DNA of 64,000 nucleotides from a virus, in IMG/VR virus record IMGVR_UViG_3300028844_005756, positions 21,834-85,833 of that record; one strand, given 5' to 3'. Below, piece after piece: positions 11,760 through 14,852 of this stretch. Under the pieces are notes generated by a model. It was given only the letters and a program-made list of their open reading frames with translations, did not search any database and had not been told where the DNA came from. Each line of letters starts with the position of its first letter. Position 1 is the first letter of the stretch. The translations under genes were made by a program, and so were the position numbers.

Positions 11760-12296
11760 ATGATTACAAAGCAAATCATAGATAGACTGACAGATGAGGT
11801 AAAGGAATTATTTGATTTTTACGACAAAAAGAAGTTAAGAAAATCTGATAAGCAGAAATCTGAAGATATTTCTGGTTTGCTTGAGACAGTGATGGAAGAA
11901 ATGATTGAAGGTGCGATTGCTCCAAAAGTTGATAGTGAGCCAGATATTCGTTTGAATGGTGAGCCTGTTGAGATTAAAACAACATCTGGTGATTCTTGGA
12001 GAGGTGGAGAATACTCTAAGCGAGGTGGATATTTCATTTTTGTTTCATGGAAATTGAATGAAAATAATGTCCCATCATTTTTTATAGCTGGATTAAGTTT
12101 ACAAAAAGATGATTGGATTATTAGTAAATCTAAAAATTATTATGCAACTACTTTTAATAAAAAGCAATTATTAAAAAATCAAGATAGAGTAGATTTTTAT
12201 AGTGGTAAACTCAAATCATACATGCGAGGTTCACAACAATGTATTTCTTTAGTATATGATAATACTAAAGAGTTTGATTTAAAATCTTTATTTTAA
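11760..12296 (+). CDS. PD-(D/E)XK restriction-endonuclease-like protein
   Basis: EPDIRLNGEPVEIKTT catalytic-type motif. Confidence 0.65.
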   Translation: MITKQIIDRLTDEVKELFDFYDKKKLRKSDKQKSEDISGLLETVMEEMIEGAIAPKVDSEPDIRLNGEPVEIKTTSGDSWRGGEYSKRGGYFIFVSWKLNENNVPSFFIAGLSLQKDDWIISKSKNYYATTFNKKQLLKNQDRVDFYSGKLKSYMRGSQQCISLVYDNTKEFDLKSLF

Positions 12297-12301
12297 AATA
12301 C

Positions 12302-12377
12302 TCCTGATTAGCTCAGTTGGTAGAGCAAATGACTGTTAATCATTGGGTCGCTGGTTCGAGTCCAGCATCAGGAGCCA
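12302..12377 (+). tRNA. tRNA-Asn(GTT)
   Basis: Canonical cloverleaf, acceptor TCCTGAT/ATCAGGA, anticodon loop CTGTTAA, TTCGA T-loop, encoded CCA. Confidence 0.97.
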
Positions 12378-12394
12378 AACCTTATGGAGTAATT

Positions 12395-12580
12395 ATGGCT
12401 AATGCTAAACAAAAGAAAGTTGTACGTAAAATGCTTTCGCAAATTGAAGTGATGAAAAAGAAAGCAACTGAAAAAAAGGAATCTGCTGAAGTTATTGCAA
12501 GAAAAGAACAAAATATGTTGAATTATTATAAAGATAAATTCGGAAAAAGGTTTGATGAATTTGCTGATATGGTAAGCTAA
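12395..12580 (+). CDS. small basic hypothetical protein
   Basis: GGAG SD before ATG 12395; lies between tRNA genes. Confidence 0.65.
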   Translation: MANAKQKKVVRKMLSQIEVMKKKATEKKESAEVIARKEQNMLNYYKDKFGKRFDEFADMVS

Positions 12581-12588
12581 AGAGATAT

Positions 12589-12675
12589 GCGGGGTGTTCC
12601 ATTCACATGTCTTATATACATGCGGCAAAACAGAGTGGCGGTGCCAATGAAGTTCAATTCTTCCACCCCGTACCA
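12589..12675 (+). tRNA. non-canonical tRNA-like RNA, anticodon TAT (Ile), 8/4 fold, no local D-stem, long variable arm
   Basis: GCGGGGTG/CACCCCGT acceptor + A-CCA; CATGT-CTTATAT-ACATG anticodon arm; GAAG-TTCAATT-CTTC T-arm. Confidence 0.75.
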
Positions 12676-12707
12676 CATTTAAAAAAAATATATTTATTAT
12701 GTAATTA

Positions 12708-13088
12708 ATGGAAAATAATACAAATAATGAAGATTTAAAGTTCAATGAACCTTTTCTTGAAAAAAAAGAAGTAACTGCAATTTCATATGATAGTTCCGTA
12801 GTAGATGAAATTGTTGAGAATGAACCGCAAATCACAAAAATTGTAACTCCTGTTGATGATTGGACCTATTGGGCAAAATGGATTGGTAATGCGTTTCTCA
12901 TTGTTGGTACATTACTTACTAATTTAGCATTACTTCCAATGAACTATATTTTTAGTTTGATTGGTTTATTTTTATGGGCTATTGTTGCAGCACAATGGAA
13001 TGACAGAAGTTTAGTTGTTTTAAATGTTTTTCTATTAGGTACAGTTGCAATGACTTTAGCCCAGCATATTAAAGAATATTTTTTATAA
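12708..13088 (+). CDS. multi-pass membrane protein
   Basis: Three hydrophobic segments in the C-terminal half. Confidence 0.7.
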   Translation: MENNTNNEDLKFNEPFLEKKEVTAISYDSSVVDEIVENEPQITKIVTPVDDWTYWAKWIGNAFLIVGTLLTNLALLPMNYIFSLIGLFLWAIVAAQWNDRSLVVLNVFLLGTVAMTLAQHIKEYFL

Positions 13089-13095
13089 GGTAATT

Positions 13096-13253
<158 letters not shown>

Positions 13254-13404
13254 GTTTTTTTAGGTGTTTTTAGTAAAAAATACCTATATATGATCAGAAA
13301 AAAACTATAAAGACTGAAACGTTTTTTCTGTTTTGTCACCTGTCTAAACAACAGGGTTGCTGATTAGCAGCAACAATTCTATAACTAACCATAGGATAAG
13401 TATT

Positions 13405-14775
13405 ATGCAAACTATCAATACCCCCAGTGTAAATCTACACACAACAGAAGCTTTCACCGCAACAGAACAAAATATTCTCAAAGAATATCTAGAAAAGAAA
13501 GAAAAGAGATTTCCTCATAGATATGATGAAACATATCTTCAAAAGAGCGGATTGCGACTTTCTGAACATTGTGCTATTTTAAATAAAGAAGATATTGTTG
13601 TTGAGAAACCAGGTCATTTCACAAACAATTTAGTTTGGGCAGGTGGAATCAATAATAAATTTAATGATATTAAGAAAAGTTTAAGTGAAGATGGTTATGA
13701 ATTATCACATATACCACCTGCAGTTTATTTTGATAAAAAGGAAAAAAAATATCAACTAGTTGATGGAAGAACTAGATTTAAAATTTTGGAAAATTATGAT
13801 ATTAGTAATATTATAGTAGATATCTATGAGAAAATTGAAGGGGCATCAGAAAAAACAGTTGAATTAGGATGTGGTAGACTACAAACACAATCAAATTTAG
13901 GAAGGGAAATTGCTGGTAAAGTTACTGATAAGGATATTATTTCAAATGTTCATTCATGGATTGAAAGTGGGTTTATCAAAAAAGAAGACTCGACTACTAA
14001 AAAAGAAGAAGATAAACAACCTGATTTGACTAGTATAATAGAGTTTATTAATGATTTTTATAATCCATTACATGTTAAAAGTTCTAAAAAAATAAACAAT
14101 TTAGCAAATGCCGCCAGAGATACATATGGACAAAATACTAAACGAATAGTTTGGATTGATGTTAAAGATGTGCAGACTTGGTTGGGTGTAGATAAAAGAA
14201 CTAATACTAGAATTCCAAATAGTCAAAGACCACCAGAAGACCTTGACAACCCTATGGATAATAAGAATTCTTATGTTGATTCTTTTCCAGATGGAGCAAC
14301 ACATAGCAGGGGTACTTGTTATTTAGAAATTGATACAACTCAAGCAAGACGTGCCGTTGCTGCAGCAGCAAATCATGCTAGATTAAATCCTAACTGCGAC
14401 ATTAGAATTATTATATATGTTAAACAAATAACAGATAATGAAAATCCTGCAATTGCTTATAATAGAGAAATTACTAGGTTTGTTAGAACTTTTTATGGTA
14501 CTCTAAATCAAATTTCAGAATGTTATTTTAATAAGGTAACTCCATTAGTTGATGTGGTTTCTATATATGGTGCTGTACCAAGTTTAAAAGAGTATCATAA
14601 TACTAAAGAACTTATTCTTCTTAATTCAGCTTCGGTTGGAACTACTGGGTCTAATCCAAAATGGTTTCAAAAAAATCCCTTAAAGTTAAATGGAATATCA
14701 TCATATGATTTATTAAATACTATTTCTATCAATAATAACGAAGAAGAAGATGATGATGATAGTTGGCTTGATTAA
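13405..14775 (+). CDS. ParB/Srx-like N-terminal domain protein
   Basis: IKKSL...GY, PP.V, YQLVDGRTR motif; AGGA SD before ATG 13405; acidic C-terminal tail. Confidence 0.6.
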   Translation: MQTINTPSVNLHTTEAFTATEQNILKEYLEKKEKRFPHRYDETYLQKSGLRLSEHCAILNKEDIVVEKPGHFTNNLVWAGGINNKFNDIKKSLSEDGYELSHIPPAVYFDKKEKKYQLVDGRTRFKILENYDISNIIVDIYEKIEGASEKTVELGCGRLQTQSNLGREIAGKVTDKDIISNVHSWIESGFIKKEDSTTKKEEDKQPDLTSIIEFINDFYNPLHVKSSKKINNLANAARDTYGQNTKRIVWIDVKDVQTWLGVDKRTNTRIPNSQRPPEDLDNPMDNKNSYVDSFPDGATHSRGTCYLEIDTTQARRAVAAAANHARLNPNCDIRIIIYVKQITDNENPAIAYNREITRFVRTFYGTLNQISECYFNKVTPLVDVVSIYGAVPSLKEYHNTKELILLNSASVGTTGSNPKWFQKNPLKLNGISSYDLLNTISINNNEEEDDDDSWLD

Positions 14776-14810: not shown

Positions 14811-14822
14811 CAAAAAAATCCC

Positions 14823-14850
14823 TTGACATTTCCCCACAATCTGCTATACT
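14823..14850 (+). promoter_or_regulatory. early promoter TTGACA-N16-TATACT (TG extended)
   Basis: Similar to promoters at 2354 and 15290. Confidence 0.7.
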
Positions 14851-14852
14851 TT

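Follow-up and report, generated by a model that had tools for sequence, protein, structure and literature searches.

An 87-nt stretch of phage DNA raises the question of whether an RNA without the D hairpin of a tRNA can be a tRNA and, if so, what such an RNA would be used for. The RNA gene lies on the plus strand at 12589-12675 of the window, that is, the whole 64,000-nt stretch of DNA analysed here, which comes from an IMG/VR virus record of 85.8 kb with a CheckV completeness of 34%. The ORF on its 5' side has its stop at 12580, 8 nt before the RNA gene, and a DUF6552-like ORF begins 32 nt after the gene, at 12708. The window has a G+C content of ~30% and encodes T4-like baseplate and tail genes with less than 30% identity to those of marine cyano-, pelagi- and methylophilales myophages, a distant kinship. 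Inspection of the sequence showed that the D hairpin is absent, its position being occupied by 9 nt only (UUCCAUUCA, 12597-12605), and that the variable region of this copy is 26 nt long. An earlier note on this DNA had described an 8-bp acceptor stem, an A-CCA end, a 9-nt D region, an anticodon arm, a T arm and two complementary hexamers; all of these were found where the note had placed them (Table 1).

Table 1. Parts of the RNA element in the window and their conservation among its homologues
Feature	Positions	Strand	Pairing and conservation
Acceptor stem, 5' strand GCGGGGUG	12589-12596	+	Pairs with 12664-12671; 8 bp in 15 of 15 homologues; compensatory change in three pairs; pair 1 is G-U, A-U in one sequence
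UU linker, acceptor stem to P2	12597-12598	+	U10 invariant; U9 replaced by A in one sequence
P2, 5' strand CCAUUC (D-replacement strand)	12599-12604	+	Pairs with 12633-12638; covariation in four of six pairs
Anticodon arm, 5-bp stem and 7-nt loop CUUAUAU	12606-12622	+	Perfect stem of 12606-12610 with 12618-12622, covarying in three of five pairs; anticodon UAU at 12613-12615
10-nt strand CGGCAAAACA, anticodon stem to P2 3' strand	12623-12632	+	From the alignment; possible P3 5' strand at 12624-12626; AAA at 12628-12630 invariant
P2, 3' strand GAGUGG	12633-12638	+	Compensatory partner of 12599-12604; followed by CGG
10-nt junction CGGUGCCAAU, P2 to T stem	12639-12648	+	GGUGC invariant; C51 replaced by U in two clades; GG at 12640-12641 invariant, candidate for the elbow contact; possible P3 3' strand at 12643-12645
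T arm, 4-bp stem GAAG/CUUC and loop UUCAAUU	12649-12663	+	Stem 100% paired, one compensatory pair
Acceptor stem, 3' strand CACCCCGU, discriminator A and encoded CCA	12664-12675	+	A-CCA invariant; discriminator at A12672, CCA at 12673-12675

A search with neighbouring proteins led to one syntenic homologue and was followed by scans of IMG/VR and of JGI/ENA metagenomes with IUPAC patterns. This yielded 15 distinct homologues of 86-90 nt, in ~50 marine or estuarine viral or metagenome contigs that fall into at least five clades. BLAST of two element variants against cultured phages returned chance fragments only, the matches from a pattern scan of 185,579 bacterial and archaeal species genomes were all GC-rich and due to chance, the 5' half being absent from every one, and the neighbouring gene at 13357-14775, used as a query, led to no related loci. 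Patterns in which the anticodon was left free returned UAU members only, and searches with covariance models found neither second copies nor divergent paralogues, each phage record carrying one copy. Across loci the mean identity of the element is 89%, as against ~58% for its 87-nt flanks. Identical copies of the element occur in differing flanking contexts, and the neighbouring genes vary by clade, with no conserved adjacent partner gene, while the element itself stays nearly identical. As judged from these comparisons, the element is real, conserved and under selection at the level of RNA. The phage that carries it is widespread in seawater, since the stretch 12250-13300 is almost complete in 18 marine DNA runs from 10 studies, with 93-95% of its sampled words present.

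The same set of homologues was used to establish the fold. In a MAFFT alignment of 12 sequences, 96.6% of base-pair cells are paired and 11 pairs are changed on both sides, a level of pairing and covariation that none of 500 shuffles matched; with slid partners, pairing falls to ~50%, and over the two alignments such controls pair in only 50-60% of cells. In an alignment of all 15 homologues, divergent members included, 99.7% of cells are paired, all four helices are kept and 11 pairs again show compensatory change, with 0 of 500 shuffles as good; this count is to be read in the light of the covariance-model fitting, which leans toward the proposed structure. RNAalifold, run without a hint, returned the same nested fold, consisting of the acceptor stem, a helix that we call P2, the anticodon stem and the T stem, and compensatory changes are present in each of the four.

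P2, formed by alignment columns 11-16 with 45-50, is the helix on which the architecture turns. Of its cells, 98.6-98.9% are paired. It occurs in five sequence versions (CCAUUC/GAGUGG, CCUUCC/GGGAGG, CCGGCC/GGCCGG, CCCUCA/UGGGGG and CCCGGC/GCCGGG), all of them fully paired, and pair 13:48 is seen as UA, AU, CG, GC and UG. P2 contributes 1.9-9.7 kcal/mol to the stability of the RNA (3.6 in the window). Given the five versions that are always paired, the compensatory changes in four of the six pairs and this gain in stability, we take the long-range helix to be real. The earlier note had proposed that CCAUUC in the D region pairs with GAGUGG in the variable region and that this helix stands in for the D stem, and had looked to covariation among homologues to decide the matter; the compensatory versions bear the proposal out, and all 15 homologues keep the helix. 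Folding of the window copy alone (z = -1.5) is not informative; its minimum free energy structure has a GGCA/UGCC hairpin instead of the long-range helix.

The GGCA/UGCC pairing had itself been put forward as a stem within the variable region. Three of its base pairs are kept in every sequence (12624-12626 with 12643-12645; here P3), but the fourth is broken in most sequences, and P3 shows one covariation event only, a single change of pair 36:57 from G-C to A-U. Should P2 and P3 coexist in one molecule, the RNA would be pseudoknotted. The pseudoknot of the earlier note therefore survives in part: its long-range helix is strongly supported, but the knot itself depends on a 3-bp stem with one covariation, and a nested three-way junction fits the data equally well. 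We regard simultaneous formation of P2 and P3 as a possible but weak proposition. The invariant GG at 12640-12641 and AAA at 12628-12630 may make tertiary contacts with the T-loop or with helix grooves; they are candidates only, since invariant positions cannot covary. In its dimensions the fold resembles a tRNA: the 6 bp of P2 and the 5 bp of the anticodon stem make 11 bp plus a bulge, which is about the length of the normal stack of D stem, 26:44 pair and anticodon stem, and the 8-bp acceptor stem and 4-bp T stem make up the standard 12-bp branch.

Beyond this branch, the element has many of the sequence-level features of a canonical tRNA, including a 7-nt T-loop that reads UUCAAYU in all sequences, with a G:C closing pair (the G53:C61 equivalent) and equivalents of U54 and A58. 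The 15 homologues likewise share a 7-nt anticodon loop, U33, a purine at position 37 and an N73-CCA end. The anticodon UAU, flanked by U33 and A37, is unchanged in every homologue, as are loop positions 32-37 as a whole. Sequence comparison thus indicates that the hallmarks of a tRNA are under selection here, the anticodon loop C-U-UAU-A being invariant despite a covarying stem, and the T-loop and A73-CCA being invariant as well. The combination that defines an AUA-decoding tRNA-Ile, an anticodon UAU or LAU together with A73, is present in the form of UAU and A73, both invariant. There are also tRNA-Ile identity elements in the D stem, such as U12:A23, and these cannot be mapped onto the fold of the element.

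As the earlier note had anticipated, standard tRNA finders miss the element. Default ARAGORN is silent, the mitochondrial modes of ARAGORN make no call, and the Rfam tRNA model makes none even at E<=10; a four-arm cloverleaf with a D stem-loop that scores above threshold was found neither with RF00005 nor with ARAGORN. The permissive -ps setting of ARAGORN proposes a 96-nt cloverleaf starting from 12580, which we rejected: it has three acceptor mispairs, and its D stem is made from the true acceptor strand, which covaries. The tRNA-like domain of tmRNA, characterised by the alanine identity pair G3:U70 and a tag frame, does not describe the element either, as pair 3 is G-C and neither ARAGORN nor Rfam calls a tmRNA. 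The best-scoring Rfam model is that of tRNA-Sec (RF01852), to which the acceptor stem, anticodon arm, variable region and 4-bp T stem can be aligned. The scores of 20.1 bits in the window and at most 25.6 in the homologues fall well below the gathering score of 47, however, the alignment lacks the D-arm of the model in its entirety, and the anticodon is UAU, not UCA.

The architecture is better described by two other classes. All homologues have the 8-bp acceptor stem and 4-bp T stem of the (8/4) tRNAs, with compensatory changes. The covariation of P2 in addition places the RNA with the D-armless tRNAs of the mitochondrial type, in that there is no D hairpin and the anticodon stem is lengthened by the pairing of a replacement strand with the variable region; this membership is of an architectural class and does not imply common descent. 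In topology, the nearest precedent is a mitochondrial tRNA without a D-arm, tRNA-Ser(GCU). The human molecule has its D-replacement loop paired with its variable loop and stacked on the anticodon stem (PMC9427863), and in animal mt-tRNA-Ser(GCU/UCU) generally there is no D hairpin, pairing between the replacement strand and the variable region extends the anticodon arm, and the whole forms a three-way junction or Y. The phage RNA differs from these tRNAs in having a robust 6-bp Watson-Crick helix where they have loose pairs, in its two long conserved junction strands (10 nt each), and in keeping a canonical T-loop, an encoded CCA and an 8/4 rather than a 7/5-like branch. It is also longer, at 86-90 nt compared with ~60 nt, and comes from bacterial viruses rather than organelles.

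The discriminator of (8/4) allo-tRNAs is G73. Together with the (8/4) tRNA-Ser and tRNA-His of phages, allo-tRNAs share with our element the 12-bp 8/4 branch, a long variable region and a place in phage tRNA clusters, and UAU is their commonest anticodon (PMC5389517). Compared by description, they have a tRNA-Sec-like D stem-loop with a long stem and a tetraloop, a free V-arm and Ser identity (PMC5389517). The phage RNA, in contrast, has no D hairpin, carries A73, and has no free long V-arm, its variable region being consumed by P2; it is thus not an allo-tRNA as that class is defined. A further likeness, this time in coding, is to the tRNA-Ile2 of Mycoplasma mobile, which also has a UAU anticodon for AUA and is independent of TilS and lysidine (PMC3575796). 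That tRNA is an ordinary cloverleaf, however, and both the IleRS (Arg865) and the ribosome that use it are adapted (PMC3575796); no such adaptation of IleRS or ribosome is known for the hosts of these phages. The novel topology claimed in the earlier note must be narrowed accordingly: the principle is known from human mitochondrial tRNA-Ser(GCU) (PMC9427863), and what is new is the combination of a stable 6-bp replacement helix, long conserved junctions, a canonical T-loop, an 8/4 branch and an origin in bacterial viruses. No report of that combination was found in the literature searched.

The genomic surroundings are those of a tRNA gene. In nearly every locus that has tRNA genes, the element lies among them on the same strand, the neighbours including tRNAs for Asn, Asp, Arg(UCU), Leu(UAA), Thr and Glu and a tRNA with the anticodon CAU; all of these encode CCA, as the element does. 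In one clade the element adjoins a phage tmRNA. This tmRNA, at L205:2297-2663 (also L204:1-339), with the tag ANDNVENYNYALAA, and the most divergent family member share one tRNA cluster. A near-consensus TTGACA-17-TATAAT promoter stands ~10-20 nt upstream of the element in most clades, the same layout as is seen for genuine phage tRNA genes. Near-consensus sigma-70 promoters (TTGACA, 17 nt, TATACT or TATAAT) were also noted directly before single tRNA genes with very short leaders, at 14820-14852 in the window and in L013, L040 and L002; for the tRNA-Asp of the window, 2 nt only separate the -10 box from the first base of the tRNA. The own promoter of the window copy is weak, and this copy may be co-transcribed from a promoter-like site upstream of tRNA-Asn. 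Two metatranscriptome runs contain short contigs (12470-12620 and 12651-12838, at a depth of 2-4) that cross the two ends of the element; these show neither RNA ends nor strand, could be precursor RNA or DNA carry-over, and speak neither for nor against expression.

Several observations concern the neighbouring genes themselves. A tRNA-Arg(UCU) within 13096-13253 of the window (58 bits with Rfam, missed by default ARAGORN) is mispaired at acceptor positions 2-4 and fused to a small ORF. Between 13180 and 13181, two other marine runs have DNA contigs with 75 extra letters, and the relative L014 has a complete small ORF followed by an intact tRNA-Arg, so the window version looks like a deletion of ~75 nt or an assembly collapse. 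Small ORFs of the same family, which begin MT(E/S)..L(K/E)TI(E/K)FYQ, lie beside different tRNA genes in several clades (in the window from 13096 onward, in L014 at ~5940 and in L017 downstream of the element), which suggests mobile small genes interleaved with tRNA genes. The nearest large relative of the window also has a tRNA with the anticodon ACC, assigned to Gly by ARAGORN (L199:99-174; G001:C1:101098-101173); except in Arg(ACG), A34 is an unusual base for tRNAs of the bacterial type.

The premise that AUA codons are frequent in this AT-rich phage is correct. They number 31.9 per 1000 codons in the window, where they make up 39% of Ile codons; the figure is 22-29 per 1000 for four other clades and 12 for a small sample from the L204 clade. 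In four of the five clades the AUA share of Ile codons is 29-39%. The other tRNAs carried (Arg-UCU, Leu-UAA, Asn and Asp) likewise serve AT-rich codons. An AUA decoder is probably already present, however. Related phages, including the nearest large relative of the window, carry a canonical CAU tRNA (L013:13334-13410; L199:4130-4206, that is, G001:C1:105129-105205), which in one clade lies ~316 nt upstream of the UAU element. ARAGORN calls it tRNA-Met, but it has C4:G69 and C5:G68, and its best match in E. coli, over the full length at ~80% identity, is a gene annotated as tRNA-Ile; from its sequence it is probably a lysidine-dependent tRNA-Ile2. A simple need for an extra AUA decoder is a weaker argument for this reason.

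We consider a working, AUA-decoding tRNA-Ile(UAU) of non-canonical architecture to be the best reading of the element, and put its chances at about even. The RNA folds as a three-way junction in which the 8-bp acceptor stem stacks on the 4-bp T stem, giving the 12-bp branch needed by EF-Tu, RNase P and the CCA end, and in which P2, made of the D-replacement strand and the long variable region, is followed by the 5-bp anticodon stem to form the second arm. The core would be built by the conserved junction strands AAA and GGUGC, perhaps by way of the 3-bp pseudoknot and a contact of GG to the T-loop. Transcription would start from sigma-70-type promoters, either its own or that of an upstream tRNA, the ends would be trimmed like those of the tRNA neighbours, and the host IleRS would charge the product, which could then read the frequent AUA codons without lysidine, alongside the tRNA-Ile2(CAU)-like gene of the same phages. 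Two precedents favour decoding: 8/4 tRNAs take part in translation in E. coli (PMC5389517), and mitochondrial tRNAs that lack a D-arm can be charged and bound by EF-Tu (PMC4013460). Against it, an IleRS of the E. coli type is ~360-fold poorer at charging a UAU anticodon than at charging LAU, and on E. coli ribosomes unmodified UAU reads AUG as well (PMC3575796). Acidobacterial allo-tRNA(UAU) species of irregular fold, a comparable case, failed suppression tests, and their authors suggested a non-translational role (PMC5389517). It also counts against decoding that no D-armless tRNA is known to work on a bacterial ribosome. The literature searched contained no report of a D-armless tRNA in phages or bacteria. 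Neither a phage IleRS nor a TilS was found in five partial phage records, which as fragments are not evidence of absence. The fuller proposal, that this is an Ile-charged D-armless phage tRNA with an 8/4 acceptor branch and a core supplied by the variable region, perhaps in the form of a pseudoknot, that it reads AUA on bacterial ribosomes free of lysidine, and that it is possibly invisible to host defences that target tRNAs, we hold more tentatively, at somewhat less than an even chance.

Some of the points that weigh on decoding lend themselves to the main rival, in which the RNA is a tRNA mimic that takes no part in decoding, and is instead a decoy or sponge for a host enzyme directed at tRNAs, a regulator, or an aminoacyl donor outside the ribosome. 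The candidate targets of such a mimic would be a nuclease that cuts the anticodon or the CCA tail, or a modification enzyme, and its odd core would bar it from the ribosome or confer resistance. Defences that target tRNAs and the tRNA countermeasures of phages are an active theme, which counts in favour of a mimic, and so do the missing canonical core, the poor handling of UAU by typical IleRS and ribosomes, the coexistence of a tRNA-Ile2-like gene in the same phages, and the judgement that irregular 8/4 UAU tRNAs are probably non-translational (PMC5389517). It is not obvious, however, why a decoy should combine an exact 12-bp branch with a canonical T-loop, A73-CCA and an anticodon arm of full length; the flanks vary by clade and hold no conserved partner gene next to the element, and the demand for AUA decoding is high. 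On balance we think such a mimic less likely than not, though it is the rival to be taken most seriously.

The remaining alternatives fare worse. That the element might act in cis, as tRNA-like punctuation for RNase P or as a protector of the 5' or 3' ends of neighbouring mRNAs, is suggested by its position close to both neighbouring ORFs in the window, by the contiguity of promoter, element and next ORF in the L009 clade, and by the RNA contigs that cross both of its ends; but the neighbours differ across clades while the element stays nearly identical, and punctuation needs neither an invariant anticodon loop nor an encoded CCA, which makes this improbable. It seems no more plausible, and if anything a shade less so, that we are dealing with a recoding or missense tRNA that carries Ser or Met rather than Ile and partly reassigns AUA during infection. 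In its favour are the nearest Rfam model, tRNA-Sec (20-26 bits), and the 8/4 architecture in common with allo-tRNAs, in which Ser is inserted at codons for other amino acids; Ser would be a candidate by way of the long variable region, as in allo-tRNAs. G73 marks Ser identity, however, and the discriminator here is A73; the variable region is tied into P2 and forms no free hairpin; and with AUA at ~3% of all codons, spread across structural genes, wholesale missense would be very costly. The silence of the tRNA finders and the poor cloverleaf given by permissive ARAGORN might, finally, be taken as signs of a decaying tRNA pseudogene or a chance fold. This idea is effectively refuted by the covariation data, with strong purifying selection and compensatory changes in four helices across at least five clades and ~50 contigs, and we give it almost no weight.

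If the AUA-decoding tRNA-Ile is what the element proves to be, it would be the first D-armless tRNA at work outside mitochondria; in architecture, it would be the first D-armless tRNA shape seen outside them. Its use in translation would mean that the RNase P, IleRS, EF-Tu and ribosome of bacteria tolerate loss of the D-arm, a tolerance so far known only from co-evolved mitochondrial systems, and that the natural range of tRNA structures in the bacterial world is wider. Were it a decoy instead, it would represent a new class of phage tRNA mimic. The family shows that standard finders under-count the tRNA repertoires of phages, and the element offers a compact, naturally evolved scaffold for the engineering of orthogonal tRNAs. 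It also raises the idea that phages reshape tRNAs in order to escape the tRNA-directed defences of their hosts or to bypass the dependence on TilS for AUA.
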